Positions 1 through 16,258 of a stretch of 64,000 nucleotides of DNA are shown here, piece by piece. The stretch is taken from the IMG/VR virus record IMGVR_UViG_3300048591_000147, positions 1 through 64,000 of that record; one strand, 5' to 3'. This stretch comes from a virus. The notes beneath the pieces were generated by a model. The model was given only the letters and a program-made list of their open reading frames with translations. It was not told the DNA's origin and did no database searches. The translations under genes and the position numbers were made by a program. Numbering within the stretch: position 1 is the stretch's first letter; each line of letters begins with the position of its first letter.

Positions 1-130
1 TTACTCCAACAGTTACTCCAACAGTTACTCCAACAGTTACTCCAACAGTTACTCCAACAGTTACTCCAACAGTTACTCCAACAGTTACTCCAACAGTTAC
101 TCCAACAGTTACTCCAACAGTTACTCCAAC
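1..130 (+). repeat. Perfect tandem repeat of a 12-bp unit ('ttactccaacag', ~10.8 copies), in frame as (TPTV)n inside the fibre gene
   Basis: Exact 12-nt periodicity over lines 1-130. Frame 3 reads TPTVTPTV. The repeat runs off the window start. Confidence 0.9.
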
Positions 131-773
131 TATATCGATTACGCCTACAATTACGCCTACAGAGACTGTGACACCTACAGTAACTCCAACCACTTCGTCT
201 ACGTCCAATGACATTATATTTGATATTGTCCAAACGGTTGGATTAGATTTAAGCAACGCAAACAGAACCGCAACAGTGTCAAATCCGGCATGGTGGGAAT
301 GTCTTTCATATTGTAATAAATTAGTGGATGCGACTGATAGTAATTATATTGAAATAGAATGCACAGTGGTGGATGCAGCGGCGGGTCATATCATGGTGGG
401 CATTGGCAGTGATTACACGTTGGCGTTTCCACACAACTCACCAAATTCATATATGTATTACGCGCATGGGTCTATATGGAATGGGGGTAGTTCATCGTCA
501 TATGGTAGTTCATGGTTATCCGTGGGAACTCACAACATAGGCATATTACTGAAAAATGGTAAATTGTATTTTAGGGTGGATGGGGTTTGGCAAAATAGTG
601 CTGATGTAGACTCTGAAACCGGGTTCGCATTCTCTGGTTTGACTGGTTCGTTTAACGTATTGTTTAGCGTATCTGGAGACACAGATCCAAATGCATATGG
701 TACATTGAATAATACGTCAGGTCTTCTGGTTTATTCATTACCTACTGGCGCTTCCGTCTGGGGGCAGCTATAA
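1..773 (+). CDS. Tail fibre / receptor-binding protein, 5'-truncated by the window edge: (TPTV)n linker plus a C-terminal lectin-like globular domain
   Basis: The open frame from position 3 is continuous with ORF 168..773. The PT-repeat linker resembles those in fibres 12884..13894 and 13973..14908. The C-terminal ~190 aa are non-repetitive and aromatic/Gly-rich. Confidence 0.6.
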   Translation, partial: TPTVTPTVTPTVTPTVTPTVTPTVTPTVTPTVTPTVTPTVTPTISITPTITPTETVTPTVTPTTSSTSNDIIFDIVQTVGLDLSNANRTATVSNPAWWECLSYCNKLVDATDSNYIEIECTVVDAAAGHIMVGIGSDYTLAFPHNSPNSYMYYAHGSIWNGGSSSSYGSSWLSVGTHNIGILLKNGKLYFRVDGVWQNSADVDSETGFAFSGLTGSFNVLFSVSGDTDPNAYGTLNNTSGLLVYSLPTGASVWGQL

Positions 774-833
774 ACTATCTTCTCATATGTTATGGCATAA
801 ATAGTATGAATAATATTTTTATAGGATTAAAAA

Positions 834-1370
834 ATGGCTGACAGTAAAATCTCTGATTTACCATTAAGGGATGCATTAACAGGCGCGGAACAGTTCCCGC
901 TCGATCAGGGCTTAGTGACTGTGAAAGCATCGTTGGATGATGTTAAACAGTATTGTAATACTATACTAACTTTAACTGATGGTACTTGGTCTGGGATATT
1001 CTCAGAATATGGAATTCTAGGCGAAGCAGTGGCATTCGGTGAATTAATTTATCTAAGTGCTGCTGATAGTAAATGGTATAAAGCTGATGCAACAACAGCC
1101 GCTACATCTGGTGATGTAAAAGTTGGTGTATGTGTTGTAGGTGGGGTTTTGGATGCGGTTACAACGATATTATATATTGGTAGTATACGCGCAGACGCAC
1201 TGTTCCCAACATTTACCATTTCTGGCCCAGTAATGATATCAGAAACTCCGGGTGAAATGACACAAACCGCGCCAGTCACGAGCAATTCTGTGACAAGACG
1301 AATAGGATTCGCTAGCACCGCTAATGAAGTCCTGATAAATATCAGTAACGATTATTACACGCACATATAA
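834..1370 (+). CDS. Hypothetical virion/fibre-associated protein (178 aa)
   Basis: ORF with SD 'aaaaatggct'. Lies in the fibre operon. No motif recognised. Confidence 0.45.
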   Translation: MADSKISDLPLRDALTGAEQFPLDQGLVTVKASLDDVKQYCNTILTLTDGTWSGIFSEYGILGEAVAFGELIYLSAADSKWYKADATTAATSGDVKVGVCVVGGVLDAVTTILYIGSIRADALFPTFTISGPVMISETPGEMTQTAPVTSNSVTRRIGFASTANEVLINISNDYYTHI

Positions 1371-1387
1371 CAGGATATAAATTAATA

Positions 1388-2299
1388 ATGACTACACAAA
1401 CGTGGACGACTGCGCTAAATCATGCCAACACCGCTGGTTGGAGAGCAACACATTCTGAATTATCAACACATTTAACAACAGTGGGCGCGCCTAAGTCTGC
1501 CGATACTGGTCAAGTTGATTGGACAACGAATAACATACCAACAACGGCTGGTACACCTAGATATGAAATACGATATCTAAATGATTCATTGCACGCCACT
1601 TCTCCGATTTACTTTAAATTAGAGTGGGATAATGAAACCGCAGGCGGAACAATTCCATATATGTTCCTAACTGTTGGCACTGGGAGTGACGGTGCTGGCA
1701 CTTTAACTGGTGATGTGACTGCTAGAGTTGCAATATCTATTGGTGAATTATTATCATCAAACGTAACTGCAAGGGCTTCATATCTATGTGGAATTTCAGG
1801 TTATTTGGGTTTATCTTATAAAAGATACGCACAACATAACGGTGGCAGCGCCCCAATGGGATTTTCATTTTTTGCTATAAGCAGATTTAGGGATGCTTCG
1901 GGTACGCCTATTGATGGTGGATTTTATGTTTATTATTCATCTGGCGCAAATCATAATGTGTATAGGTATACTGTGAACACAACACTTAACACGGTTTCAG
2001 ACGATGGAAATGCTATTTGTTTCTTCCCCGGCGCAGTTGGAGCGCCCACTTTGGTGGGTGGTGAGGCACAGGTAATGCGCCATTTCGGCATGCAGCCTAC
2101 TGTTACATGTGTACCAGACTTTTTGAGTTACCTAAGTACAGAAATCGGAACTACAAGCACTTTTACGGCTACTCCAGTCGGCGTAACACCAATAACATAT
2201 TTGGCACTTGGTCCTGATGGTAGTGGTAATATAGCAGCACCCGGAATAGCATCTGTGCATGCAAGCCCTTATCACATGCTAGCCATGCGGTGGGAGTAA
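1388..2299 (+). CDS. Fibre-module protein (303 aa), paralog of 11950..12843(-)
   Basis: The N-terminal ~80 aa align with 11950..12843 ('SADTGQ(V/I)(D/N)W', 'YEIRYLNDSLH(A/G)T(S/A)PIY'). Confidence 0.6.
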   Translation: MTTQTWTTALNHANTAGWRATHSELSTHLTTVGAPKSADTGQVDWTTNNIPTTAGTPRYEIRYLNDSLHATSPIYFKLEWDNETAGGTIPYMFLTVGTGSDGAGTLTGDVTARVAISIGELLSSNVTARASYLCGISGYLGLSYKRYAQHNGGSAPMGFSFFAISRFRDASGTPIDGGFYVYYSSGANHNVYRYTVNTTLNTVSDDGNAICFFPGAVGAPTLVGGEAQVMRHFGMQPTVTCVPDFLSYLSTEIGTTSTFTATPVGVTPITYLALGPDGSGNIAAPGIASVHASPYHMLAMRWE

Positions 2300-2300
2300 A

Positions 2301-2648
2301 ATGCCTCATTATAATGCCACACCTGATATATTAGTTGGAGAAGGCGTTCCACTAGTCACGATTAATATCGTGCCAATTTATCAGTTCCCCCTATTTAATA
2401 CTGTGCCTCCCGGTGACAAAAGGATTGCTGCTGATAATCCGGCACGAGTAATTCTGGGTAGTGCTCCAGTGTCTAGAATAATAGACATATTCGATAAAGA
2501 AACTAATGTACATGTAGCTCGCACCACATCATCCGCTATTGACGGTACTTATAGCTTTGGCCAATTACCTAACAGAGAATATTTTGTTATATGTAGAGGG
2601 ATTAATGGAGAAAATGATACAATACACACAAGAGTGGCCCCAGTATGA
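2301..2648 (+). CDS. Fibre-module protein (115 aa), paralog of 11587..11946(-)
   Basis: Shared motifs 'VPPG(D/E)(K/L)R(I/V)A(A/G)D(N/S)P', 'APxSR(I/V)(I/V)D(I/V)FD(K/R)E', 'TTS(S/A)..DGTY.F'. Confidence 0.6.
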   Translation: MPHYNATPDILVGEGVPLVTINIVPIYQFPLFNTVPPGDKRIAADNPARVILGSAPVSRIIDIFDKETNVHVARTTSSAIDGTYSFGQLPNREYFVICRGINGENDTIHTRVAPV

Positions 2649-3992: not shown

Positions 3993-5258
3993 TCACTCAA
4001 AATTTGTGAGCACAAATTTCTTTGATTTAACATCTATGTATCGGTAATAGGGCTCGGTAAGAAACCAATACCAACGTGCTGGCATTTTAGGGTTTACCGC
4101 GTTTCCATACCCGTCAGTAACAATAAATACTGCGCCGGGATATTTCTTGAACTCTTTTAATACGCTAGTCTCTATGATGGAGAAACTTGTACCATATCCA
4201 GAAGGAAGTCTTGCGTCTTTCAAATCAATTTCTTCAACGTATGTAGAGAATCCAAAGAATCGCACATTGAATCTGTCCAATGGCACTGATTTTGCCGCGT
4301 TAAAAAACCGCTGTGTATAGTTTCTACAAGATGGTGAAGTGTCTATGTAGAATGCCACATCTATCTTTTCTGGTTTGATCTTAATAAATTCGTCATCAGT
4401 GGGCAATATAAGCGACTTGTCCAAAGTGGTGAACCGCCTATTAAGCTTCACCCATTGTTGATTCTGATGTTCTGTTTCTTTTAGTTTATTATTGACCCAT
4501 CGGTGTATAATAGTTTCCCATTTCTTCTTCTTTCTGATTTTCTTGTTCTGTAAGTACTGTGATATTTTACCAGAACAATCACCAGCATTTAATCCAGTCT
4601 CTTCACTTACGTCTTTTTGAATCTTGTTAAGAAGCTCAAGCTCTTGCACGGACATATTGTCCAGAATATCGTCTACTAGTTTGTCTGATGCGTCTGTTTG
4701 CTCCCATTGTGCATGATCATCCGCTAGACTTGGAAGTGCCTGATCCGTACTTGTCGAACCATCGGATGACTGACCATCTAGTTTATTGTTGAGCATTTCA
4801 AAATAATATTCAAAATTGTGGTTTGGTTGTAAATCGGGATCGTTTGGAAATACATTTTTTAACCAACATAATTCAGTGTTGGGATCTATTTCTTGCCTCA
4901 CAAAGTTATAGTATTTTACTAGGGATTCATTAATAGTTAGATCCATAGCGATGTTGGCAACGTGCATGGTACTCTTACTCATGCCGTTATTCACCATATA
5001 AATATATCGTGTAATATGGTTAAGCATGACATGCAGACATTCATGTGCGATATAAAATGTTTTTTGGTTTAAATCCAGAGTGTTCCAAAACTTCTCGTTC
5101 AATAATAATTTGAAATTGTTGTTCAACGGGTCGAAGCTGATAGCACAACGCTCAATCTCTTCGGTAAAGTATGGTTGACCCAGATTGAAAAACGTATGGT
5201 ACATATTGCCATACAACTGTAAATTATTTAAGATGTCTTGCTTTTCGTTGTTATCCAT
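3993..5258 (-). CDS. vWA-domain protein with an N-terminal HExxH metallopeptidase-like domain (CobT/DUF2201-like)
   Basis: 'IAHECLHVMLNH' zinc-peptidase motif. C-terminal MIDAS 'IDTSPS' ... 'TDGYG'. Divergent from the MoxR ATPase gene. Confidence 0.7.
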   Translation of the reverse strand: MDNNEKQDILNNLQLYGNMYHTFFNLGQPYFTEEIERCAISFDPLNNNFKLLLNEKFWNTLDLNQKTFYIAHECLHVMLNHITRYIYMVNNGMSKSTMHVANIAMDLTINESLVKYYNFVRQEIDPNTELCWLKNVFPNDPDLQPNHNFEYYFEMLNNKLDGQSSDGSTSTDQALPSLADDHAQWEQTDASDKLVDDILDNMSVQELELLNKIQKDVSEETGLNAGDCSGKISQYLQNKKIRKKKKWETIIHRWVNNKLKETEHQNQQWVKLNRRFTTLDKSLILPTDDEFIKIKPEKIDVAFYIDTSPSCRNYTQRFFNAAKSVPLDRFNVRFFGFSTYVEEIDLKDARLPSGYGTSFSIIETSVLKEFKKYPGAVFIVTDGYGNAVNPKMPARWYWFLTEPYYRYIDVKSKKFVLTNFE

Positions 5259-5320: not shown

Positions 5321-6328
5321 ATGAATAAAAACATAATGAACCAATTGGAGTTTGCGGTCAAGAACAATTATAACGTTCTGCTGATTGGTGATGCTGGAGT
5401 TGGTAAAACAGCAGTCATAAAACAAGTGTTCGAATCGATGAACTTCAGTTATATGTATTTCTCAGCAGCGACCATGGACCCTTGGGTGGATTTCGTTGGA
5501 GTTCCAAAGGAAGTAGAAGATGCTGATGGTAATAAGTATCTGGACCTAATCAGACCTAAACAGTTTGCATTTGATACGGTAGATGCCATCTTCATGGACG
5601 AGTATAATAGGGCAGCGCCAAAGGTAAGAAATTCTACCATGGAGTTGATACAGTTCAAGAGTATCAATGGAAAGAAATATAATAGGCTCAAAATGGTGTG
5701 GGCTGCTATAAATCCATACTCAGAAGATGATAACAAGTATAATGTTGAGGAACTAGACCCAGCACAATTGGATCGATTTGATTTTCATATTGAGATACCG
5801 TACAAAATCAATATGGAATATTTTACATTGAAGTATCCGACAATCGCTAGACCTAGCGCGGAGTGGTGGAACGCTCTACCAGCAGAACAAAAGAAAATAG
5901 TCTCACCAAGACGATTGGATAAAGCATTACAAACATTTACTGAAGGTGGGGACTTATCGTGGGTGATTCCTAAAGGCGTCAATGTATCGCAATTAGCTAT
6001 TAGCCTAAAGTACGGCTGTTACCAAGACAGACTGAAGGAAGTGTTTGAAAGTAAGAATGAGGCTGATATTAAAAAATTGGTCAATGATAAGAATACTCTA
6101 AGTGACTTTGTCAAACATATCGTAAAGAACAAAGATTATTGTAATTTCTTCCTACCGTTTGTGTCAGACGAGCGACTGTCGTCCTTATTGGAACATGAAC
6201 AGATAATAGATTATTTGATGCAGCCAGAAGTTGTCATCATGCGAAAAAATTTGATCCGTAGCATTGTAAACACTAAATCGGTTAAATCAAATATATTGGA
6301 TAAGTTTACTAGTCTGCTGGCACGCTAA
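5321..6328 (+). CDS. MoxR-family AAA+ ATPase (CobS-like)
   Basis: Walker A 'GDAGVGKT', Walker B 'IFMDEYNRA'. 335 aa. Sits beside the vWA partner. Confidence 0.75.
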   Translation: MNKNIMNQLEFAVKNNYNVLLIGDAGVGKTAVIKQVFESMNFSYMYFSAATMDPWVDFVGVPKEVEDADGNKYLDLIRPKQFAFDTVDAIFMDEYNRAAPKVRNSTMELIQFKSINGKKYNRLKMVWAAINPYSEDDNKYNVEELDPAQLDRFDFHIEIPYKINMEYFTLKYPTIARPSAEWWNALPAEQKKIVSPRRLDKALQTFTEGGDLSWVIPKGVNVSQLAISLKYGCYQDRLKEVFESKNEADIKKLVNDKNTLSDFVKHIVKNKDYCNFFLPFVSDERLSSLLEHEQIIDYLMQPEVVIMRKNLIRSIVNTKSVKSNILDKFTSLLAR

Positions 6329-6922
6329 TTATTTTGTTATCAATTTGGCTGGTGTGCCAACGTAAGTGCCAGATTCGGTGATGTGCTTTACGACACCAGA
6401 GTTCAAACCAATAGTAACATCATCACAAATGTTTATTTTCTCTTTAACGCAGGCGTTAGTTCCAAAATATACCCGATTACCAATGTTACAGTTTCCAGAT
6501 ATTTTTGCGCCGGGTGCAGTTGTGAAGAAGTCTCCGATTCGACAGTCATGTCCTATGGTGGTCTGTAGGTTTAGATGACAGTGGTCCCCAATTACTATAT
6601 TGGTGGTTAGAATCGATCCAGCACATATTACAGAACCTTTTCCAACCTTGATAAACTCATCCAACACAATAGCTGAAGAATGTACGAAAGAAAAGAACTT
6701 TGTGGCATCTGGTAACGAATTCAATATCTTTTGGCGGTGATGTGGACTACCCACAGCTATCAACACTTCGTATTCATTAATATCTAGTGTACTCAGAGCG
6801 GCGGACGTTTCATCGGCGTATTCATCATTGACGAAGAATTTTATTTCTGCATCTATGTCACTTAATATGTGGTGATAAACTTCTCTCCCAAATCCACCAG
6901 ACCCTATAATAGCTTTCTTCAT
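6329..6922 (-). CDS. Sugar N-/O-acetyltransferase, NeuD/PglD family (left-handed beta-helix)
   Basis: N-terminal 'IIGSGGFGREV'. Hexapeptide repeats '(I/V)G.....I....(I/V)G'. Confidence 0.7.
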   Translation of the reverse strand: MKKAIIGSGGFGREVYHHILSDIDAEIKFFVNDEYADETSAALSTLDINEYEVLIAVGSPHHRQKILNSLPDATKFFSFVHSSAIVLDEFIKVGKGSVICAGSILTTNIVIGDHCHLNLQTTIGHDCRIGDFFTTAPGAKISGNCNIGNRVYFGTNACVKEKINICDDVTIGLNSGVVKHITESGTYVGTPAKLITK

Positions 6923-6931
6923 ATCGTTTCC

Positions 6932-7816
6932 TTATAATGGTGCGTATTGGCTGTAACTTCTAACGAATGCGTCTGAGTAGGGACACACAGCCGATCCCAT
7001 ATCAATTTGTGTAATATTCTTATACTCGTGATAAAAATCATCTATTAGCTTCTTCGCCACATATGAACAAGCGTATATCAAGACCGTGTTTTCGTTTCTA
7101 TCAAATTTATCTAATAGGTTTTTTATTTCGTCTTGGACTCTATCGCTTTCTTTCCAAACGTCATTATTGTTCAGCGTTTGTACATGAGAAAATGAAAAAT
7201 ATTTACGCATATTTATACAGTAATCTGGCCCAATCACGATCACATTACGTTTCTTGAATTGGTCAAAATACTTCTGCATTTCACCAGTTATACTAAGCCG
7301 CACGAATAGGAATCCATCACAGAGCTTCATCCCATTTAAATGTGGGTATATCTGCTCACTCATATAAGGTTTTTTGTATACTTGTGAAGATATACCAATA
7401 AAATATGGGGGGACTTTCTTTATGATAGGCATAAGATAATCGTCAACATATTTCTGTCCAGATTCGCCCCAGACCCAGTTATTACAATTGTACTCAGTTG
7501 GGGGGCGTGTTATTACACTGTTACCAGTATACGCTATTCGTAGCATAGGAATCCACTCACCGTCATTATATCTGGCAACCGAGAATGGCTTATGGTCTTG
7601 TAATTGGTTTAAAAAATGTGTGTTGATATTTGCTTGTAACACATTTACATTATAATTCTCCGTTAGTGGGAACTGTAATTTTTTAAATGAGAAAATCATA
7701 TCTTGGCAATAAAACTTTGGAGCCAGCGTATAAAGTCTTTGTAGACCTTGTGCCATTTTATTTTTGAATTGTTTGGAGTCTTCTATTGTTATTGATTTAT
7801 ACTGTTCATCTATCAT
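6932..7816 (-). CDS. Putative glycosyltransferase (single-domain, 294 aa)
   Basis: ~55% identical over ~220 aa to the C-terminal half of 7813..9777 ('ARYNDGEW.PML', 'KYFDQFKKRN(V/I)I(V/I)(I/V)GP', 'CSYVAKK(L/M)ID'). The domain class (GT-D/DUF1792-like?) is unverified. Confidence 0.45.
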   Translation of the reverse strand: MIDEQYKSITIEDSKQFKNKMAQGLQRLYTLAPKFYCQDMIFSFKKLQFPLTENYNVNVLQANINTHFLNQLQDHKPFSVARYNDGEWIPMLRIAYTGNSVITRPPTEYNCNNWVWGESGQKYVDDYLMPIIKKVPPYFIGISSQVYKKPYMSEQIYPHLNGMKLCDGFLFVRLSITGEMQKYFDQFKKRNVIVIGPDYCINMRKYFSFSHVQTLNNNDVWKESDRVQDEIKNLLDKFDRNENTVLIYACSYVAKKLIDDFYHEYKNITQIDMGSAVCPYSDAFVRSYSQYAPL

Positions 7817-9777
7817 AGTGGGGTAAATTTATGCCAAGGTCTTATATTTATGCCACAATATGCGCATAGTGCGGCACCTATATCGATCTGGGTGATCATT
7901 TTATACTCATGGTATAAAGCGTCGATCATTGTTTTGGCAACATACGAGCAGCAGTATAATACCACAGGACTGTCTATTTTATTTACATTGTTCTTAAGTT
8001 CATTATAGATTCTATCATGCTCATCCCATACGTTGTTGTTGGTAACAATATGAGTGAATTTAAAATATTTTGTCATCTTGCTCAGGTATTGAGGTCCAAC
8101 TATTATTATATTTCTTTTCTTGAATTGATCGAAATACTTAATCAGTTCACCATTGATACTTAACTTAGCCCACAACCCACCATCAACCAATTGTAAGTCC
8201 TTCAGATATGGCGTTATGAAACTCATCATATAAGGTTTTTGTAATACTTGGGACGCTATACCAATATAATATTTTGGCTTGCTCTTTATCACTGGTAACA
8301 TCCGCTCTTCGGCATATTTTTGCCCGGATTCATTTAATGTCCAATCTTTAAAATTGTATGGTGGGTGATTGGGTGGAACGCTGCTTGAAATGCCGGAATA
8401 TGATATTTTTAACATTGGTGACCACTCACCGTCATTATATCTGGCAAATGAAAATGGTATATTATTCTCTAAGTTATTGAGAAATAATTGATTAACATCA
8501 TTCTCCAGTGTTGTTATATTTGATGGTGTTATTAAAGGAAATTTGACCGTGCAATCATTGATAGTATACACACTATCTTCCGTGAAGAACTCAGGACATA
8601 CCAAGCGATATGCTTGTAAACCATCCTTTATCTGTTTCTTAATTTGATATGCTTTAGGATCTGCTCTTGATTCTAGATAATCAAATATTTTTTGTTGCTG
8701 CACGCCATAATCGAAACGCATAAATGAATGCGATTGAATGTTGGTAGACATTTGATGTAGCAGTTTACGATCAGCTTCTAACTTTTTAATTATATTGCAT
8801 GCTCTATCGACCTCATTATTCTTTATGATGAACATCATATCAGTAGTGTATTTGAACTGATTGTTACTGTTATGGATATCAGTTGTGATTAGCACTACAC
8901 CCTGCAATGCTGCTTCTATACCAAGAGGCCAGCCGTTGAATGCATCACCAGTCTCGGCGTTTATTAGAATGTCAACATGCTTATTATAGAATTCATCGAG
9001 TTCTACTTGTGCCTTCGGACTATAATTTGTTATATTGGCATCTGGGATACAATTACCAATGGATATAAATCTCACATTTAATGATGGAAAGGTCTTTTTA
9101 AATGTCGAGGCTATTTGACGATAACTATCACTTCCCTTACTGGCATTGTGCCCCATGTTAGAGAAGCAAACCGTCAGAGTCGATCTATTTAACTTTTTTT
9201 GTTGTGGCTTTTCATCTTTGTTTAAACATGTACTACCATAGCATGAGATATAGTTAGTGAAGCCATAATTACTCAACCATTTATCAGTCTTTTCTTGTGT
9301 GGAGATTATGTTGGCTTTTTTGTTTATTTTCAATATGTCTTCTTTGCCACCTAGCCCACCACCGGGATACAGATGAATGAACTGTTTTTCGTGCGGTACT
9401 TTAGTATATTCTTTGTTAAATTTTATGTAGTTTGACAAGAAAATGTGATATATTGTCTTATATGAATCTACGTTGAATTCGGTGCCAGTGGTGAAGAGAT
9501 AACTGAATGAACTTAGCCCATTGAATTTAGTACCATCTACCATTGTATTATACTTGTTCAAATGATTATATTGTGGATCAAATATTAGAATGTTGAAACT
9601 AGACAAATTGAAATACTTGGACATCTGTTCATAATCAACGTCATATGATATGTTGGCATAGGACTGTATCTTATTGACTAATATATCACAGTTACCACGA
9701 TCTATGAATGCTTTAGTCTCAGCAATGCGCCACTTTGCGTATTTTGATGGAAACAAAATATCTACTAATAGGTTCAT
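7813..9777 (-). CDS. Two-domain glycosyltransferase: GT-B/GT1-like N-terminal half plus the duplicated C-terminal domain shared with 6932..7816
   Basis: GT1-like 'ETGDAFNGWPLGIEAALQGVVLITTD' (E-x7-E region). The C-terminal 'ARYNDGEWSPML...' domain is paralogous to the neighbouring gene. Confidence 0.55.
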   Translation of the reverse strand: MNLLVDILFPSKYAKWRIAETKAFIDRGNCDILVNKIQSYANISYDVDYEQMSKYFNLSSFNILIFDPQYNHLNKYNTMVDGTKFNGLSSFSYLFTTGTEFNVDSYKTIYHIFLSNYIKFNKEYTKVPHEKQFIHLYPGGGLGGKEDILKINKKANIISTQEKTDKWLSNYGFTNYISCYGSTCLNKDEKPQQKKLNRSTLTVCFSNMGHNASKGSDSYRQIASTFKKTFPSLNVRFISIGNCIPDANITNYSPKAQVELDEFYNKHVDILINAETGDAFNGWPLGIEAALQGVVLITTDIHNSNNQFKYTTDMMFIIKNNEVDRACNIIKKLEADRKLLHQMSTNIQSHSFMRFDYGVQQQKIFDYLESRADPKAYQIKKQIKDGLQAYRLVCPEFFTEDSVYTINDCTVKFPLITPSNITTLENDVNQLFLNNLENNIPFSFARYNDGEWSPMLKISYSGISSSVPPNHPPYNFKDWTLNESGQKYAEERMLPVIKSKPKYYIGIASQVLQKPYMMSFITPYLKDLQLVDGGLWAKLSINGELIKYFDQFKKRNIIIVGPQYLSKMTKYFKFTHIVTNNNVWDEHDRIYNELKNNVNKIDSPVVLYCCSYVAKTMIDALYHEYKMITQIDIGAALCAYCGINIRPWHKFTPL

Positions 9778-10790
9778 GATTTAAATTTTTTGATGGCCGC
9801 ACAGATATAATTAATCTCAAAATCAGTTACATTACAGTGTAATGGAAAATTGATTATTCTGTCATATAAGTATGTGGCGTTATCATGGCCGTCAGCTATA
9901 GGTTTGTAATACTTGTTCGCCTCTATACCTATATCCCTAAATGCGTTTGGTGAGATGGGATTCTCGAATACTACTGGTAGATTACCATAGAAATTTCTGT
10001 CATTGAAATTGAATATTTTGACGTCTTTGTTATCGGTCAAGACCTCACAGTATTTTTTCTGCGCATTAAGATGCTTGTCAATGTCATAATTATCTATATG
10101 TTGTAAGATGAATGCGGCAGATACTTCGGATATCTTGAAGTTTGACGATTTTGGTTTGTGTATTCGGTTATAGTGAAAACCAAATCCACATATAGCCTGT
10201 AGTACTTCATACTCATCGGTGTCAACAACTAAAAATCCACCTTCTCCAAATCCAAATGTTTTAGTGTGATGTAGCGAACCAAATGATGCGTCACCCAATA
10301 AGCAAATGTTGACACCATCTTTATTACATGTTAGAAATGAAGATGCATTGTCATAGATTATGATTTTATCTTTGAATGTATTAATGTCAAAGTCCACTAC
10401 AGTACCAAATAGATTGGTTATTATGATACCATCGGCATCACCAACATCTTCTGGTCTAAGCGTGTATGTATTCAAATCTATATCGACAAGCCTAGTATTA
10501 GTTTCGTTTACTACACAACTTGGAAATGTAAACGATGGACTAACCCATTTCAATTTTCGTTTGTGTTTTGTTTCATAGTGGAATATTAGAGCGTGTAGCG
10601 CAGTGGTCCCATTCGATACGCACAATACCCTCTTGTTAGAAGGGCAATTAATCATTCTTTCTATTTGCTTTTCTAATAGGTCTTTGACTGGACCGTTATT
10701 TGTGAATTGGTTGTGGTCAGTGGATATCTTTAAATATTTCTGTACCAACTCGGAATCGATTGTTTTATGTTGAATATAGCTAATTTTCAT
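9774..10790 (-). CDS. DegT/DnrJ/EryC1/StrS-family PLP-dependent sugar aminotransferase
   Basis: 'GD..SFGSLHHTK...GEGG' (Schiff-base Lys region). 338 aa. Stop/start overlap with the GT gene. Confidence 0.65.
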   Translation of the reverse strand: MKISYIQHKTIDSELVQKYLKISTDHNQFTNNGPVKDLLEKQIERMINCPSNKRVLCVSNGTTALHALIFHYETKHKRKLKWVSPSFTFPSCVVNETNTRLVDIDLNTYTLRPEDVGDADGIIITNLFGTVVDFDINTFKDKIIIYDNASSFLTCNKDGVNICLLGDASFGSLHHTKTFGFGEGGFLVVDTDEYEVLQAICGFGFHYNRIHKPKSSNFKISEVSAAFILQHIDNYDIDKHLNAQKKYCEVLTDNKDVKIFNFNDRNFYGNLPVVFENPISPNAFRDIGIEANKYYKPIADGHDNATYLYDRIINFPLHCNVTDFEINYICAAIKKFKS

Positions 10791-10801
10791 TTACGTTCTC
10801 G

Positions 10802-11587
10802 TCAATTTGGTGGAATATCCATTGTGTCTGCGTCAAACAATGTTTTATATGGTGGATCTTCTCTTGTAACGTCAGTCACTTTTTCCCAAATATCGTCTTG
10901 AGTTCGTATAGTATCCAATCGCAGTTTGATGGATTTTATGAAATTCTGTTTGATGTTGACTGGTGGGCTTAAATAAAACTGCACTCTGAAATTTAATGAT
11001 GTAACTATGACCCGCTTATCAGCGAGTTTTGGGTAATTTTTGTTAAAATCTACATTAACTAGCTCTACGCTAGTGATTTTCGTCAAGTCGTGAAAGTCGT
11101 CAGAAGTTTGAATTTGTAATACAGGATCAAAGATCATTAATATCTGTTCTAATATCTGTAAATGTTGGTCTTCATTACTACAATACATTGAAAGCTCAAA
11201 TAATCCGTCATATGGTATTGGTTGAGCTTGATAGACTACTTTTATGTCATCTGGTAACGATCCGCCCGCTGGTAGCACGCTATGGCGCATGAAAGTTCCG
11301 ACACCTTTTCTTCTAGATGGTACTTGTTCCATTCCGGCAAAATCAGCCGCGAACATGGGCAATCGTATAGGTTTATTTTGTGTATTCTCAGAAAGAATTG
11401 CATCCACTATTCGACTAGAATTACCATACCGGATAGGCACATACATTAGATTCTTAGTAGAATTGAAATTGTTTTTTCCAACAGATACTTGCAGCCCGGA
11501 AAATATGGCCATGAATTGTATTATATAGCTTCTGATTTGTTCGTCATAGAAATAGGTATCTAAGTCTTTCTTGAAATCATTATCCAT
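10802..11587 (-). CDS. Hypothetical protein (261 aa), minus-strand fibre operon
   Basis: ORF with start/stop abutting neighbours. No counterpart in the plus-strand module. Confidence 0.45.
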   Translation of the reverse strand: MDNDFKKDLDTYFYDEQIRSYIIQFMAIFSGLQVSVGKNNFNSTKNLMYVPIRYGNSSRIVDAILSENTQNKPIRLPMFAADFAGMEQVPSRRKGVGTFMRHSVLPAGGSLPDDIKVVYQAQPIPYDGLFELSMYCSNEDQHLQILEQILMIFDPVLQIQTSDDFHDLTKITSVELVNVDFNKNYPKLADKRVIVTSLNFRVQFYLSPPVNIKQNFIKSIKLRLDTIRTQDDIWEKVTDVTREDPPYKTLFDADTMDIPPN

Positions 11588-11946
11588 TAGACTGGGTGAA
11601 CTCCGGGTATAATAACATCCCTTTCATTACTAGCAATAACGCCTCTAATAATTACATCATATCCTTGTGTACGGGCAGACAAATTGGTAAATTCATATGT
11701 ACCATCACCCGCTGATGTAGTTGAAGCGACTAGAACCTTAAACTCTCTGTCAAAGACATCCACAACCCGAGATGCTGGCGCCATTCCAACTAGTACTAAA
11801 CCAGTGGGAGAGTCGCCAGCAACTCTTAACTCGCCGGGAGGTACATATTCATTCACAATAAATGAGGGTGTGAATGTTAATATATTAGATAGCGGGGCTA
11901 CAGGAAATAATACAGTATCTAAATACGCATCAATAATAAGAGCCAT
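11587..11946 (-). CDS. Fibre-module protein, paralog of 2301..2648
   Basis: See 2301..2648. Confidence 0.6.
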   Translation of the reverse strand: MALIIDAYLDTVLFPVAPLSNILTFTPSFIVNEYVPPGELRVAGDSPTGLVLVGMAPASRVVDVFDREFKVLVASTTSAGDGTYEFTNLSARTQGYDVIIRGVIASNERDVIIPGVHPV

Positions 11947-11949
11947 AGG

Positions 11950-12843
11950 TTACTCCCAGATTAACCCGAAATAATCGCGCCATGACATATTATTTTCAAG
12001 CACAATAAATGTTTTTGGTGTAACACCAAGAGTAGTGCAGGTAAATGTTGTTCCTAGTGTTAAACCATCAGTTGATGACAATGATACTACGTTAGATAAC
12101 GGCTGTATTAGTGGCATTGCACAATAATGTCGTGCCACCTGATAATCACCCGGAACACCAGCATGAATAGTCCCTGACGTACCGAGAAGACCGGGCATGA
12201 ATGCATATGCGTTACATCCAAAAATCCCAACATCAGTAGATGACCAAGTGTATCCAGTGGTAAATTCATATGTTGTGACTGAGGGACACACAGTGACAGT
12301 AGCTACATAAACGACAACGCCCTGTGCGGTAGGTGTTCCAGAACTGTCTACTGTACGATGTATTACAAGCCCAGAAACAGCTCCAGATGTAAAAACTACA
12401 TTACACTTTAATGCAAACCATACACACCCTTCTACCATACACGCATAAGTTTGTTTGGCCAGAACTGTAGAATCAAGAACGAATTGAGAAGAATAACATT
12501 GAACACGCGCCACGAATATACCTGTGATGGTGCCGCTTCCATTAGAACCAGTACCCACAGTTATCCATATTGATGGATATGTATGAACAACACCATTACC
12601 ATATTCTATTTTAACATAAATTGGTGCAGTGCCGTGTAATGAATCATTTAAATATCTTATTTCATATCCAGCAGCGGTATCAGTCGATCCTGATTTGTTT
12701 ACAGACGCCCAGTTTATTTGACCAGTGTCTGCGGATTTAATGAATCCTACCGCTGTTAAAGCATTTGAAAACGCCAACCCCCATGCTCTGAAGTTAGCAG
12801 TTGCTGCATGTGAAATTAATGTTGTATAATTATTTGTTGCCAT
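11950..12843 (-). CDS. Fibre-module protein, paralog of 1388..2299
   Basis: See 1388..2299. Confidence 0.6.
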   Translation of the reverse strand: MATNNYTTLISHAATANFRAWGLAFSNALTAVGFIKSADTGQINWASVNKSGSTDTAAGYEIRYLNDSLHGTAPIYVKIEYGNGVVHTYPSIWITVGTGSNGSGTITGIFVARVQCYSSQFVLDSTVLAKQTYACMVEGCVWFALKCNVVFTSGAVSGLVIHRTVDSSGTPTAQGVVVYVATVTVCPSVTTYEFTTGYTWSSTDVGIFGCNAYAFMPGLLGTSGTIHAGVPGDYQVARHYCAMPLIQPLSNVVSLSSTDGLTLGTTFTCTTLGVTPKTFIVLENNMSWRDYFGLIWE

Positions 12844-12873
12844 TTTTATAATACCTTTAGTAGTTCGTTACAT

Positions 12874-12881
12874 TATTTATA
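12874..12881 (-). promoter_or_regulatory. T4-type late promoter motif TATAAATA (reverse strand) upstream of 11950..12843
   Basis: The plus strand reads 'tatttata', ~30 nt upstream of the gene's start codon. Confidence 0.4.
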
Positions 12882-12883
12882 CG

Positions 12884-13894
12884 TTAGGCGCACAAATTAC
12901 CGCCTACGTCATCGCCGCTTGGTGGTGTATATCCAGTGACTATATTTCCACCCACATCATCACCATTCGGTGGCGTGTAAGTGCAACCTACTACATATGA
13001 CGGGCTAGGAGTCACGGTTGGCGTAACTGTTGGTGTTACCGACTCTGTAGGAGTAATAGTTGGAGTGATTGAAGGCGTCACCGTTGGCGTCACGGTTGGT
13101 GTAACAGTCGGCATTACTGACTCTGTAGGAGTAATAGTTGGTGTTACAGTCGGTGTAATTGTAGGCGTCACAGTCGGTGTTACAGACTCTGTCGGTGTAA
13201 TGGTTGGTGTAACAGTCGGTGTTACAGTTGGTGTAATCGTAGGCGTAATTGTAGGCGTTACCGTAGGCGTCACAGTTGGTGTAATTGTAGGCGTCACAGT
13301 TGGTGTAATTGTAGGCGTCACAGTTGGTGTTACCGTTGGAGTGACCGAAGCGGTTGGTGTAACAGTCGGTGTAACACTAATCGTTGGTGTAACAGTCGGT
13401 GTAACTGACATCGTTGGTGTCACTGTTGGTGTTGGTGTTGGAGTTCTAGTTGTTGTAGGTGTAATGGTCACCGTGGGTGTTATTGTAGGTGTTACTGTAG
13501 GCGTCACAGTCGGTGTAATGGTTGGAGTAATAGTAGGTGTGACTGTTGTTGTAGGCGTCACAGTCGGTGTTGGAGTTGGAGTTGGCGTGACGTTTATTAC
13601 ACCATCGTTTAACGGTTTTATGAACAATACATTACAAAAGCCAGAAACGCTTTCTGAAAAATATATGTTAATCGACGAATCAGTTGCTTCGACATAATCT
13701 GGATATATTAATTTGTTATCAGTGTCAAAAACTTGAATTAATAGATTATCGGTATTGAATGTGTGTGAAATGTTCCAAACGCTAGTAGCTACAACTTGTG
13801 TGTTGGTCGCAACAGCAGGATTACTAGAAACGTCGACTGTTTCTAGTTCATTTGTCTTTGTGTTTATATAAATTTTCTTAAAACTAGAATTCAT
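12884..13894 (-). CDS. Tail fibre protein with ~200-aa (TPTV/TPTI)n linker and C-terminal 'YTPP(N/S)GDDVGGN' x2
   Basis: Unique N-terminal ~100 aa, then PT repeats, then a C-terminal motif shared with 2645..2884. Confidence 0.65.
12990..13590 (-). repeat. Imperfect PT-linker coding repeat (codon-diversified)
   Basis: Translates to [11 protein letters not shown]... This produces the spurious antisense ORF 12981..13697. Confidence 0.8.
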
Positions 13895-13972
13895 GGGTCA
13901 TTCACCACTCACTAGTTCTAGTCCACAATATGATTTCATTTTATCACTCTTTAAGATATTTATTAATACCAA

Positions 13973-14908
13973 TTAAATTGGCGTTACAGATGGGGTAACT
14001 GTTGGAGTCACAGATAACGTAGGAGTAACTGTTTCCGTAGGTGTAATCGTTGGGGTCACAGATATTGTAGGGGTTATCGTAGGCGTCACAGATATTGTTG
14101 GTGTGACTGTTGGAGTGATAGTTGGAGTAGGGGTTATCGTCACTGGTACACAAGTAATTAATGGAGATCCAGCCTCCATTTCTATATCTGAATCATCTTC
14201 CATTGTTATCGGGCTGCAATTCTCCATCAACATCGCCTTAATCACATCTGTCGTAGTTGGTGTAATTGTAGGTGTAATAGTTGGCGTAACGGTGACAGTT
14301 GGGGTCACAGTTTCTGTAGGAGTAATGGTTGGTGTTAAACTAATAGTTGGTGTAATAGTTGGCGTGACGGTGACAGTTGGAGTAATAGTCGGAGTAACCG
14401 TAGGTGTCGGTGTAGGTGTTCTAGTTGTCGTAGGTGTCGGTGTAGGTGTTCTAGTTGTCGTTACAGTTGGTGTGACAGTCGCAGTTGTAGTTATTGTAGG
14501 AGTAATAGTCACAGTCGGCGTAATAGTTGGTGTTACGGTCGGCGTAATTGTAGGTGTAATGGTTGGAGTTATTGTAGGTGTAATGGTTGGTGTCACCGTT
14601 GGAGTAGGCGAATTTGTCACCTGTACCAAGGTTACATTAGGAATTGAAAAATGTATTGCTACCGTCCCAGTAACTATATCAGAAAAGTTGAATACTAAGT
14701 GGCTACCAGTGTCTATTACACTATTGGGTATGATGATTTCATTATTAGCGATAACTACGAATGAATAATCAGAAGAGTGTTTCTTGATGGTAACTTGGGC
14801 GGCATTGAATTCATAGATTACATCATTTATGTCGTCTGGTAGCGGACCGTTGAATAAAACGGTATTCCCTGTTTCTATGTCTAATGTGTATCGATACAAG
14901 ATATTCAT
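13973..14908 (-). CDS. Tail fibre protein with two PT-repeat linkers separated by an acidic Cys-containing insert
   Basis: Unique N-terminal domain, then PT repeats ~14263..14596 and 13976..14158. Confidence 0.65.
   Translation of the reverse strand: MNILYRYTLDIETGNTVLFNGPLPDDINDVIYEFNAAQVTIKKHSSDYSFVVIANNEIIIPNSVIDTGSHLVFNFSDIVTGTVAIHFSIPNVTLVQVTNSPTPTVTPTITPTITPTITPTITPTVTPTITPTVTITPTITTTATVTPTVTTTRTPTPTPTTTRTPTPTPTVTPTITPTVTVTPTITPTISLTPTITPTETVTPTVTVTPTITPTITPTTTDVIKAMLMENCSPITMEDDSDIEMEAGSPLITCVPVTITPTPTITPTVTPTISVTPTITPTISVTPTITPTETVTPTLSVTPTVTPSVTPI
14263..14596 (-). repeat. PT-linker coding repeat
   Basis: TPTxTPT periodicity. Produces antisense ORF 14103..14768. Confidence 0.8.
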
Positions 14909-15858
14909 CTGTTTATCAATACTTGGTCAGTGATGTCAACGAATATGCTATTACTGTCTACTATAAAACCTATTCTCTGCATCGAGTACTCATTTGGTAC
15001 GGTAGTGGTTATTTCACCATTTTTCCCAACGAAAACTGTGGTCATTGGCGGTTCACTCCAATTCCAAGAGTTCGGATTTGATATCTTACCAAATTTTATA
15101 AATCTTACTACTTCACCGTTTGAATATGGTGCCAGTGAAACGCCTACACATTGTCGTGTGATATCCGTGCTGGATGCTACACCTAATTTGTTATAGTCCT
15201 TATAACATACACAATAATTTGCTGGGATCGTTTCTATAGCCTTAGCAGTGATTGCATGGCCCTCGGCTTTAGTGGATTGATCTAAAGCGTTCTGGTAGCT
15301 AATAAATGATTCAGTAGTTAAGAACGCACCACTACCAAATTTGTCTAATCTTTTAACAGGTTTTCCAGCATCATCAAATAAGATCTGGCCAGAGTAATTA
15401 CTTTGATTCAGTCCAACTGTAGAGCCGACAGAATATGCATTAACAATCGAACCGCTTTGTAAGTATCCTACAAATAAACGAACCTTATCTACCCAGCGAT
15501 TTCCAACCCTAACCTGCATGACTTTAGTCTTTAAATTAAAGAAGTGCTGGTCAGCGACTGGCGAAGCTGGTATTGTTGACCCGTATGTTGGTGCTACTGT
15601 CGTGTAACCAAAAGTTCTAACTCCAGTAGGAATGTCAATATCTATATAAAGATAATAGTTGTTGCTGCTTGGGAATGACCCAGTCCATGCGGTTAGGTTG
15701 GTTTCTGATTCTACTAATAGGTAATTATGGTTACCGTGGGCAAAAGTTCCGATGAATGGGGTAGAATCACAAATCAAACGAACATTATTACCAACTTTTG
15801 ATAAAAAAGATGGACTTGTTTGGACTTGAACTAGACCTTGGCGAAAAGATAATAACAT
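14905..15858 (-). CDS. Tail fibre / receptor-binding protein (317 aa)
   Basis: First gene of the minus-strand fibre operon. Ser/Thr/Asn/Gly/Tyr-rich, fibre-like composition. Confidence 0.5.
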   Translation of the reverse strand: MLLSFRQGLVQVQTSPSFLSKVGNNVRLICDSTPFIGTFAHGNHNYLLVESETNLTAWTGSFPSSNNYYLYIDIDIPTGVRTFGYTTVAPTYGSTIPASPVADQHFFNLKTKVMQVRVGNRWVDKVRLFVGYLQSGSIVNAYSVGSTVGLNQSNYSGQILFDDAGKPVKRLDKFGSGAFLTTESFISYQNALDQSTKAEGHAITAKAIETIPANYCVCYKDYNKLGVASSTDITRQCVGVSLAPYSNGEVVRFIKFGKISNPNSWNWSEPPMTTVFVGKNGEITTTVPNEYSMQRIGFIVDSNSIFVDITDQVLINR

Positions 15859-15887: not shown

Positions 15888-16187
15888 TTAATCATTTAAA
15901 ACCGAATTAACCTGTTCATTTGATGTAACTGGTACACAGATATAATTATCTAACTCAAATTCGTTAAGCATTCTCTTATGATTGAAAATGTCAACGAAGG
16001 TTATCTGCATCACTCCAGTGGATTGTGAAAGATATTCTGATTTTTTAGAGTCGTAAAAGACTATGTCATCTTTTACATCATACTTATTAGTGCATGCGGT
16101 AACTGTACCAATAGTGAAGTCTACGGATGGTGAGTCTTTACAACCATATAAGCTAATTGCTAGAATTAATAAAACTATAAACCTCAT
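15888..16187 (-). CDS. Small lipoprotein (lipobox 'LAISLYGC')
   Basis: Signal peptide plus Cys at +16. 99 aa. Confidence 0.55.
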   Translation of the reverse strand: MRFIVLLILAISLYGCKDSPSVDFTIGTVTACTNKYDVKDDIVFYDSKKSEYLSQSTGVMQITFVDIFNHKRMLNEFELDNYICVPVTSNEQVNSVLND

Positions 16188-16226
16188 GATTGCACCAACC
16201 TTTCAAATAATATGTCTATTTATCGT

Positions 16227-16234
16227 TATAAATA
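16227..16234 (+). promoter_or_regulatory. Late promoter motif TATAAATA
   Basis: Exact octamer ~25 nt upstream of the 16259 ATG. Confidence 0.4.
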
Positions 16235-16258
16235 GTTGAAAATAGATAGGTAAAATAC

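Follow-up and report, generated by a model that had tools for sequence, protein, structure and literature searches.

A putative virus-encoded amino-sugar glycosylation cassette beside the tail and fibre-type genes of an uncultured jumbo phage

The first 64,000 nucleotides of the viral record IMGVR_UViG_3300048591_000147 (positions 1 to 64,000; this whole stretch is hereafter called the window) carry on the minus strand, between positions 6329 and 15858, a block of genes in which fibre-type and tail proteins are followed by four predicted sugar-modifying enzymes, namely an aminotransferase, two glycosyltransferases (GTs) and an acetyltransferase. The best explanation for these enzymes is a four-gene virus-specific protein-glycosylation module standing at the 3' end of a tail/fibre block. 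The block comprises ten head-to-tail open reading frames (ORFs) of 317, 311, 336, 297, 119, 261, 338, 654, 294 and 197 amino acids (aa); an initial annotation of this DNA had counted eleven genes in the same interval, although its own list also sums to ten. An eleventh member lies outside these limits, i.e., a gene for a 99-aa lipoprotein-like protein (15888..16187, minus strand) with a signal peptide ending in LYGC, which heads the minus-strand block and is adjoined by a divergent intergenic region of 71 bp (16188-16258). A homolog of this gene is paired with a homolog of the 317-aa gene in four related loci (L003, L013, L014 and L015). When the window genes are compared with the orthologous locus L003, non-synonymous divergence (pN) is 0.06-0.16 and synonymous divergence (pS) is 0.75-0.83, meaning that synonymous sites are saturated. 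Such a saturated pS together with a low pN argues that the genes are real and functional and, as judged from this sequence comparison, all cassette genes are under strong purifying selection.

Regarding the sugar-making enzymes, the 338-aa protein (9774..10790, minus strand) matches the DegT family PF01041 over residues 16-333, with 78.7 bits for a cut-off of 19.8 (E 6.5e-22). Its best solved relative is L136 from Mimivirus, aligned over nearly the full length (E 8.8e-40), the next best, QdtB, being about 30 orders of magnitude weaker (E 1e-9). The S-x-H-x-x-K motif of the lysine that binds pyridoxal phosphate (PLP) is present, SLHHTK of the 338-aa protein aligning with SFHHTK of L136, and the DegT-family assignment proposed by the initial annotation is thus retained. 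L136 converts UDP- or dTDP-4-keto-6-deoxy-glucose into viosamine (PMC9614988). The 338-aa protein can be described as an L136-like PLP-dependent sugar 4-aminotransferase and predicted viosamine synthase, the expected product being a nucleoside diphosphate (NDP)-4-amino-4,6-dideoxy-D-glucose, while a product of galacto configuration (Fuc4N) is also possible.

The 197-aa protein (6329..6922, minus strand) is a VioB/PglD-type sugar N-acetyltransferase. It scores 170.8 bits against TIGR03570 (NeuD/PglB/VioB), above the cut-off of 160.8, in agreement with the NeuD/PglD label it had been given, and contains a PglD_N domain (PF17836; 32.8 bits, cut-off 23.4) as well as a hexapeptide domain (PF00132) of the left-handed beta-helix type. 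Its best solved relative is VioB (7txp; E 8.8e-30), with one His aligned in both proteins, presumably the catalytic His of this family. Since the aminotransferase is nearest to L136 and the acetyltransferase nearest to VioB, the pair is predicted to yield NDP-4-acetamido-4,6-dideoxy-glucose, that is, NDP-N-acetyl-viosamine (Vio4NAc, identical to Qui4NAc), which is probably the activated sugar of this system.

The two GTs share a domain. The C-terminal domain of the 654-aa protein (7813..8655, minus strand; residues 375-654 approximately) is 47% identical (E 4e-92) to the stand-alone 294-aa protein (6932..7816, minus strand), so that the earlier description of a two-domain and a single-domain GT with a duplicated domain proves accurate. 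An AlphaFold model of the 294-aa protein, built from a 22-sequence alignment, has a predicted local distance difference test (pLDDT) score of 90.2 and a predicted template modelling (pTM) score of 0.90. When this model is submitted to Foldseek, the DUF1792 structures 4pfx and 4phr rank first with a probability of 1.00 and, on the basis of the model, the domain common to both proteins has the GT-D fold. This identification comes from the fold search alone: the window GT-D proteins have no Pfam match up to E 10, a profile of the GT-D domain gives no significant match among PDB sequences, and the threshold of PF22882 ("GT-D-like") is reached by 4 of 19 members of the family. The absence of Pfam and PDB sequence matches and the few members recognized by PF22882 thus point to a divergent GT-D branch. 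Across the 19-22 sequences of this domain family, R82, D85-G86-E87, D167, K255, D272 and R286 are invariant, D85-G86-E87, inside RYNDGEW, being a candidate D-x-E metal motif. Among full-length homologs of the 654-aa protein, RYNDGEW, DGG, K and RPWH are invariant.

The N-terminal domain of the 654-aa protein (8668..9777, minus strand) is more difficult to place by itself, as the window sequence gives a weak match to a Pfam GT profile (12.4 bits, E 0.11) and a profile of the domain has no significant match among PDB sequences. However, 10 of the 66 members of its family match PF00534 (Glycos_transf_1) and 9 of the 66 match PF13692 (Glyco_trans_1_4), from which residues 1-370 are considered a divergent GT-B, GT4-like domain. 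The 654-aa protein would therefore be a fusion of a GT4-like and a GT-D domain, i.e., the architecture of the enzymes that glycosylate serine-rich adhesins. Altogether, the folds anticipated by the initial annotation (DegT, GT-B, GT-D/DUF1792-like and left-handed beta-helix) are upheld by the profile searches and Foldseek, GT-B tentatively, from the matches of its family members. By hydropathy, all four enzymes are free of membrane-spanning segments, the maximum over 19 residues being below 1.5 for each. A GT-D-like fold is also found in proteins of Homavirus, Moumouvirus and Hyperionvirus, and in multi-glycosyltransferase clusters of other viral contigs; in the literature, no described GT-D enzyme assigned to a bacteriophage was found.

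Immediately upstream of the cassette lies the gene of the 261-aa protein (10802..11587, minus strand), which had been listed as unknown and is a T4 gp15-type tail-sheath stabiliser or tail completion protein, as indicated by profile searches against PF16724 (E 8e-40; 137 bits, cut-off 25) and phrog_227 (E 1.9e-36). Its best relatives are ORF368 of Xanthomonas phage XacN1 (50% identity) and the gp15 proteins of Xoo-sp13, Stenotrophomonas phages CM1 and RAS14, and Ralstonia phage RsoM2USA. Rather than the T4-like phage first supposed, and as judged from these sequence relatives, the source is an uncultured jumbo phage from the group of XacN1, Xoo-sp13 and RsoM2USA, with T4-type core genes and a genome of about 315 kb, the exact 654-aa protein being encoded on a JGI contig of 314,956 bp; its host is probably Gram-negative. 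A megablast search with the complete region found no nucleotide match among 50,697 phage records, and tblastn of the 654-aa and 317-aa proteins gave none among deposited phages, so the lineage is known from metagenomes only. The recently described "moraphage" lineage, which has four core groups of GTs (PMC12619734), was considered as a possible affiliation. In XacN1 and Xoo-sp13, gp15 is directly followed by the tail-sheath gene. In the window, this place is taken by the cassette, whose first gene is separated from gp15 by 11 bp and which shares its strand with the five fibre-type genes, and no sheath family was reported among the 73 further ORFs of the window.

The five proteins encoded upstream of gp15 had been labeled as fibre, receptor-binding or fibre-module proteins with no evidence given; the label now receives indirect support from their architecture and from the neighbours of their relatives. 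The 317-aa protein (14905..15858, minus strand), 80% identical in L003, corresponds to the N-terminal module of a fibre/adhesin-type family with 1282 representative relatives at 50% identity, which are unannotated and range from 309 to 2871 aa. In this family, the module of about 315 aa is always N-terminal (residues 1-315), a linker rich in Ser, Thr and Pro starts near residue 327 in 39 of 100 long members, and the long members that were sampled carry distal DUF5122 beta-propellers or ConA-like lectin domains. A conserved anchor followed by a linker and a variable binding end makes up a fibre/adhesin pattern, and this architecture appears to be split into separate ORFs in the window. An ORF of 317 aa found upstream of the cassette in the related locus L005 has the same length as the window protein but is unrelated to it.

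The two proteins that follow are candidate glycan acceptors. The 311-aa protein (13973..14908, minus strand) consists of a 95-aa N-terminal domain and Thr-Pro-Thr (TPT)n arrays, with 46% Thr+Pro overall; a conserved acidic Cys-containing segment (MENCSPITMEDDSDIEMEAGSPLITC) lies between two of its TPT arrays. The 336-aa protein (12884..13894, minus strand) has a 100-aa N-terminal domain, matching PaBG_00258, a neighbour of the "structural tail protein" of phage PaBG, and a long (TPT)n array. Its C-terminus ends with a duplicated TPP(N/S)GDDVGGN, a motif which also ends a 489-aa TPT protein in L003. The N-terminal domains of both proteins are without close relatives in the viral contig collection. 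The repeat DNA generates a strong local guanine-cytosine skew (+0.17 to +0.30 at 12.5-15 kb), and two plus-strand ORFs encoding (GVT)n (12981-13697 and 14103-14768) were rejected as antisense shadows of the TPT repeats and not genes. Large hypothetical proteins with long Thr-Pro-rich linkers are also encoded upstream of gp15 in XacN1 (ORF369, 370 and 372) and in Xoo-sp13 (331 and 332).

The 297-aa protein (11950..12843, minus strand) belongs to a multi-copy fibre-module family. Its N-terminus matches tandem paralogs of about 285 aa which follow "tail fiber protein" genes in Tunturiibacter phage Tunturi_5, at three places in one search and at four by tblastn. In the same phage (L009, 12706-14827), a "beta-1,4-glycosyltransferase" and a "nucleotidyltransferase" are convergent to the array of 297-aa-like paralogs after the tail-fibre genes. 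Its 119-aa partner (11587..11946, minus strand) gives faint CarboxypepD_reg and SdrD_B matches and is possibly a small beta-sandwich. Both have paralogs in a second, inverted fibre module at the left end of the window (3..2648, plus strand), which encodes the C-terminal part of a TPT-repeat protein running off the window start, and then proteins of 178, 303 and 115 aa. The pair of 303 and 115 aa (1388-2299 and 2301-2648, respectively, i.e., 1388-2648) is 38% and 49% identical to the 297-aa and 119-aa proteins, in keeping with the early view of a cassette placed between two inverted fibre modules.

From the 317-aa gene downward, the intergene spacings are -4, 78, 40, 3, -1, 11, -4, -4 and 9 bp. 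The overlapping or abutting junctions ascribed to the whole block are thus found at most positions (-4 to 11 bp), with the exception of the gaps of 78 and 40 bp. From gp15 to the acetyltransferase, the 4-bp overlaps and the gaps of 9-11 bp fit co-transcription and translational coupling, as far as gene spacing can indicate. At the lower end, the stop of the acetyltransferase gene (6329) abuts that of a convergent AAA-ATPase gene (6328) with zero bases between them, which leaves no space for an intergenic terminator.

Full-length relatives of the 654-aa protein are found on many contigs of 60-320 kb. In L003 and L004, where GT identity is 72%, the order is kept, i.e., lipoprotein, 317-aa protein, two TPT proteins, gp15, DegT, 654-aa protein, 294-aa protein, acetyltransferase and the convergent pair of AAA and DUF2201 genes. 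In L013, L014 and L015 (GT identity 43-47%), gp15 is gone and the orders and orientations differ, the retained homologs being the pair of lipoprotein and 317-aa-type protein (here of 557-569 aa, with built-in TPT repeats) and/or the module of 178, 303 and 115 aa. Despite these rearrangements, fibre-module homologs are at most 10 kb away from the cassette in L003, L013, L014 and L015. L005, L006, L011 and L012 (GT identity 45-47%) have gained a pyruvyl transferase and a PF22882 GT-D-like gene. In L005 and L006 (7462-8978) and L007 (5510-7013), a pyruvyl transferase and a PF22882-type gene upstream of DegT replace the free 294-aa GT-D protein, and L007 has an ATP-grasp and a methyltransferase and is without acetyltransferase. 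In still other contigs, the GT-B domain is fused to GT2 domains or methyltransferases, or joined by acyl-carrier and LuxC/E genes. For instance, in the 318-kb contig of L008 (7-10007), a GT-B domain fused to GT2 is followed by a GT2, a PglD-like acyl/acetyltransferase and an acyl-carrier-like protein, and then by a short-chain dehydrogenase, an AMP-ligase, LuxE and LuxC, a variant which suggests an N-acylated (fatty-acyl) amino sugar.

In view of these varied contexts, the core of DegT and GT-B-GT-D, with an acetyltransferase in most but not all lineages, is a mobile module. The toolkit had been described as occupying the 3' end of a fibre operon: the shared strand and the gaps of at most 11 bp from gp15 onward agree with this, whereas the link is lineage-specific, the tie between cassette and tail block being real in one sub-lineage and loose beyond. 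It can be asked, then, whether the module is an unlinked accessory island whose place after gp15 is an accident of rearrangement, its role being to place a glycan on the capsid or elsewhere on the virion, to make a free glycoconjugate, or to divert host nucleotide sugars. The neighbours of the cassette vary among lineages, the sheath gene normally follows gp15, and the GT-B domain recombines in other contigs with GT2, methyltransferase and acyl-chain enzymes, all of which would fit such an island. Nevertheless, in four diverged lineages the same fibre-module genes are found no further than 10 kb from the cassette in spite of inversions, and the tight 11-bp junction with gp15 is conserved in L003 and L004, which makes this explanation improbable.

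As for the acceptor, the characterized GT-D enzymes described in PMC6291802 extend O-glycans on serine-rich repeat adhesins, and GtfD and GtfE from Lactobacillus reuteri have the same architecture of an N-terminal GT4 and a C-terminal DUF1792 domain (PMC6291802). Cellular relatives of the 654-aa protein were sought by scanning 185,579 species genomes with two peptide patterns, a scan in which more distant relatives would be missed. The sole relative recovered is a 372-aa gene product, 45% identical over 370 aa to the GT-B domain (E 1e-109), in the Enterobacteriaceae genome MGYG-HGUT-00110 (contig CABIZV010000003.1; L024). It is encoded between flgB/C/A/M/N and fliI/H/G/F, in an island of about 9.5 kb (L024:3082-12650) which lies between flgN and fliI. 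Besides the 372-aa GT, this island includes three GT2-type genes and genes for a DegT, a methyltransferase, an ATP-grasp and a glycerophosphotransferase. Matches in Pfam or the PDB identify FliH, the FliI-type ATPase and FliG, while FlgB/C/A/M/N and FliF are presumed from their sequences. By its gene content, this layout is that of a flagellin glycosylation island. In Pseudomonas syringae, the viosamine pathway of vioA and vioB serves the O-glycosylation of flagellin (PMC3927599). XacN1, the closest cultured relative of the window phage, has at least two virion glycoproteins revealed by Schiff staining and its own, different glycosyltransferases (PMC5852040). This phage was reported without visible tail fibres, and yet its virion proteins are Schiff-positive.

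The evidence for protein acceptors, the virion glycoproteins of XacN1 and the position after gp15 together make a cytoplasmic O-glycosylation of phage structural proteins the best-supported function of the cassette; this best reading is given about an even chance of being correct. The identity of the sugar, the co-expression of the cassette with the fibre genes and the acceptor are what we infer for the following pathway. NDP-4-keto-6-deoxy-D-glucose would come from host metabolism or from a gene located beyond the window; were the host Gram-negative, it would be the RmlA/RmlB intermediate. Amination at C-4 by the L136-like aminotransferase would then give NDP-viosamine, and N-acetylation by the VioB/PglD-like enzyme NDP-Vio4NAc (Qui4NAc). 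Three soluble GT domains, i.e., the GT4-like domain fused to GT-D and the free GT-D, would build a short O-glycan on phage structural proteins in the cytoplasm, prior to assembly. The likeliest acceptors would be the Thr-rich (TPT)n linkers of the upstream fibre-type proteins, in which the glycan may stiffen the linkers, shield them from proteases or act as a mask; glycosylation of these linkers in particular is rated less probable than that of virion proteins in general. A broader and more tentative proposal, held with distinctly lower confidence, is that jumbo phages of Gram-negative hosts attach an N-acetyl-viosamine-containing O-glycan to the Thr-Pro linkers of the fibres they encode, by means of a virus-restricted GT4-GT-D set and an aminotransferase sharing ancestry with L136.

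The amino-sugar glycosylation cassette proposed from the outset is therefore confirmed in its enzymes and refined to a predicted Vio4NAc pathway, fibre glycosylation being the best-supported of the two targets suggested at the time; the other, seroconversion of host surface glycans, is possible but has less support. No Gtr or acyltransferase-3 family, as in the GtrABC and Oac systems of seroconversion, was found in the window. More generally, the module could remodel the host surface if Vio4NAc and other sugars were added, in the infected cell, to a glycoconjugate of the host. This could be the repeat unit of an O-antigen or capsule carried by undecaprenyl phosphate, or else the flagellin or pilin of the host, with the effect of blocking superinfection or keeping progeny from sticking to debris. 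Enzymes of the VioA/VioB type and GT4 enzymes are typical of O-antigen clusters, which counts for such a remodeling, and more distant relatives of the cassette add a polysaccharide pyruvyl transferase. On the other hand, the protein families reported for the 64-kb window include no flippase, polymerase, initiating phosphoglycosyl transferase or Gtr-type membrane protein, the four enzymes are without membrane segments, and no lysogeny genes were seen in the window. The GT-D enzymes described in PMC6291802 are known from protein O-glycosylation only. The position after gp15 also suggests late expression, which would be poor timing for a change of surface. Remodeling of a host surface glycan or of flagellin is the main rival explanation and is regarded as rather unlikely, while O-glycosylation of phage structural proteins keeps the first place.

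Several observations nevertheless weigh against glycosylation of the phage's own fibres. Vio4NAc is a sugar frequently present in O-antigens as well. Among the 73 further ORFs of the 64-kb window, no family of the 4,6-dehydratase, nucleotidyltransferase, epimerase, flippase or polymerase type was found; the gap in dehydratase and nucleotidyltransferase is the part of this result that tells against the pathway, the lack of a 4,6-dehydratase in the window meaning that the keto-sugar has to be provided by the host or by genes in another part of the genome. With a single-sequence AlphaFold prediction of the 654-aa protein at a pLDDT of 31, the GT-B domain is without a usable model. The adjacency to gp15 is limited to the window and its closest relatives, L003 and L004. 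In L005, L006, L011 and L012, no fibre-module homolog or TP-rich ORF lies within 10 kb, and the cassette is surrounded by PARP/WGR, ClpP and anti-defence-type genes of the Tad/Acb type; for L005, L011 and L012, such counter-defence-type and not structural surroundings speak for an action on the host. Tail proteins of XacN1 and Xoo-sp13 commonly have TPT linkers, as do many of the 1282 proteins in the 317-aa family, and tblastn finds neither of the cassette GTs in XacN1 or Xoo-sp13, so that the linkers do not need the cassette. Host flagellin as a target would fit the link to the flagellar island through the GT-B domain equally well. Sugar and GT clusters of jumbo phages have been read as remodeling the host surface by Iyer et al. 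(PMC7824862). Finally, a scan for sigma-70-like promoters gave 49 hits for 43.7 expected and terminator-like hairpins numbered 8 for 6.5 expected, both at chance level. The T4-late-like motif TATAAATA was likewise at chance level (14 for 9.2 expected), one copy (12881-12874) falling within the 40 bp that separate the 336-aa gene from the 297-aa gene. With these scans at chance, operon boundaries cannot be called from sequence.

The same enzymes could also be thought of as hypermodifying DNA, an amino-sugar glycan being added to hydroxymethylated phage bases for restriction evasion. Phage GTs that glycosylate DNA are well known and diverse, as cited in PMC12619734, and a MazG gene is present elsewhere in the window. 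However, no hydroxymethylase or thymidylate-synthase-like family was reported in the window, and the cassette stands in the tail-gene block, not among replication genes. Moreover, each enzyme has its nearest relatives in systems that build protein or fibril glycans, and the pyruvyl and methyl transferases of the cassette relatives point to a polysaccharide-type glycan. A role in DNA modification is thus considered very improbable.

Outside the block, the MoxR-like AAA ATPase gene (5321-6328, plus strand) is convergent with a gene for a DUF2201_N putative metallopeptidase (3993-5258, minus strand). This pair stays beside the cassette in several relatives (L003, L007, L013 and L014), and the AAA gene of L007 and L013 has an intein (PF14890). 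To the right of the block, two homing-endonuclease-type genes are found at 18183-19016 and 20008-20736, one being GIY-YIG/NUMOD3 and one HNH. The remainder of the window (16.3-64 kb) consists mostly of small plus-strand ORFs and includes R2K ATP-grasp, DUF4419, Band_7, Lar, MazG and primase-like domains.

Chloroviruses, Mimiviridae and some mycobacteriophages are demonstrated cases of the glycosylation of virion proteins by virus-encoded enzymes, for which there are only hints in XacN1; to our knowledge, it has not yet been shown for the kind of phage described here. If correct, O-glycosylation of the fibre proteins would provide a defined virion-glycosylation enzyme set in a phage of a presumably Gram-negative host, and it is testable, as Vio4NAc can be named as the sugar and the TPT linkers as candidate acceptors. 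Coating the fibres with glycan would have consequences for host range, resistance to proteases and recognition by antibodies, three properties that matter for phage therapy and for the way metagenomic "auxiliary" genes are read. The tie to L136 and the GT-D-like fold of giant viruses also bear on the origin of giant-virus glycosylation genes. Under the broader and more tentative proposal made above, bacteriophages and eukaryotic giant viruses would have a common virion-glycosylation toolkit, borrowed from or shared with the glycosylation of bacterial flagellins and adhesins.

Among the known systems, L136 and the N-terminal domain of L142 (N-L142) supply glycans of the virion fibrils of Mimivirus (PMC9614988). 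The fibril cluster of this virus (Acanthamoeba polyphaga mimivirus, APMV) consists of the R141 dehydratase, L136, the N-L142 acetyltransferase, the L143 pyruvyl transferase, several GTs and the R135 fibril protein. Both systems have an L136-type aminotransferase, an acetyltransferase of the PglB/PglD/VioB type and multiple viral GTs, and both adjoin genes for a fibrous virion component. Pyruvyl and methyl transferases are found in relatives of the cassette, and a GT-D-like fold occurs in Mimiviridae proteins. Unlike Mimivirus, a giant virus of eukaryotes, the bacteriophage has no R141-like 4,6-dehydratase in the window, its acetyltransferase is separate and not fused to a GT, and its cassette is known from genes alone.

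The serine-rich repeat adhesin systems of streptococci and lactobacilli (GtfA/B, dGT1 with DUF1792, and GtfD/GtfE of L. reuteri) have in common with the cassette the GT-D fold with an invariant D-x-E, the predicted architecture of a GT4-like plus a GT-D domain, soluble cytoplasmic enzymes and repeat proteins rich in hydroxy amino acids encoded alongside. In contrast to these systems, the window contains neither a GtfA/GtfB pair nor SecA2/Y2 export families, the phage repeats are Thr-Pro and not Ser-rich, the window proteins remain below the Pfam GT-D threshold and the phage host is probably Gram-negative. The cassette would thus work like a serine-rich-adhesin glycosylation system but is not a member of this group. 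With the flagellin islands, i.e., vioA/vioB/vioT and fgt1/2 of P. syringae and the enterobacterial island of L024, the cassette shares a viosamine-type aminotransferase and an acetyltransferase, which in P. syringae serve the O-glycosylation of a filament protein, and the GT-B relative that is 45% identical in L024. In the present case, one of the phage's proteins would be the acceptor, host flagellin being another possibility; the L024 DegT is only 24% identical, and no GT-D gene was found in its flagellar island.

With regard to phages, mycobacteriophage GTs modify their own structural proteins, as demonstrated experimentally (Freeman et al., 2023, as cited in PMC12619734). In the account given there, the likeness lies in phage-encoded GTs acting on the phage's own structural proteins, demonstrated in that case and proposed here from genes alone, while the GT families and hosts are different and the acceptors are the C-termini of capsid and tail-tube proteins. 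The lipopolysaccharide and capsule clusters of jumbo phages and cyanophages (Iyer et al., 2021; PMC7824862) are likewise sporadic and polymorphic associations of sugar enzymes and GTs in large phages with T4-type core genes. They differ in their epimerases or dehydratases, kinases and nucleotidyltransferases and in the host-polysaccharide target proposed for them, whereas the module in the window is minimal, uses GT-D and stands in the tail-gene block. Compared with all these systems, the cassette belongs to a known kind, virus-encoded glycosylation, within which it is not ordinary and not categorically new.

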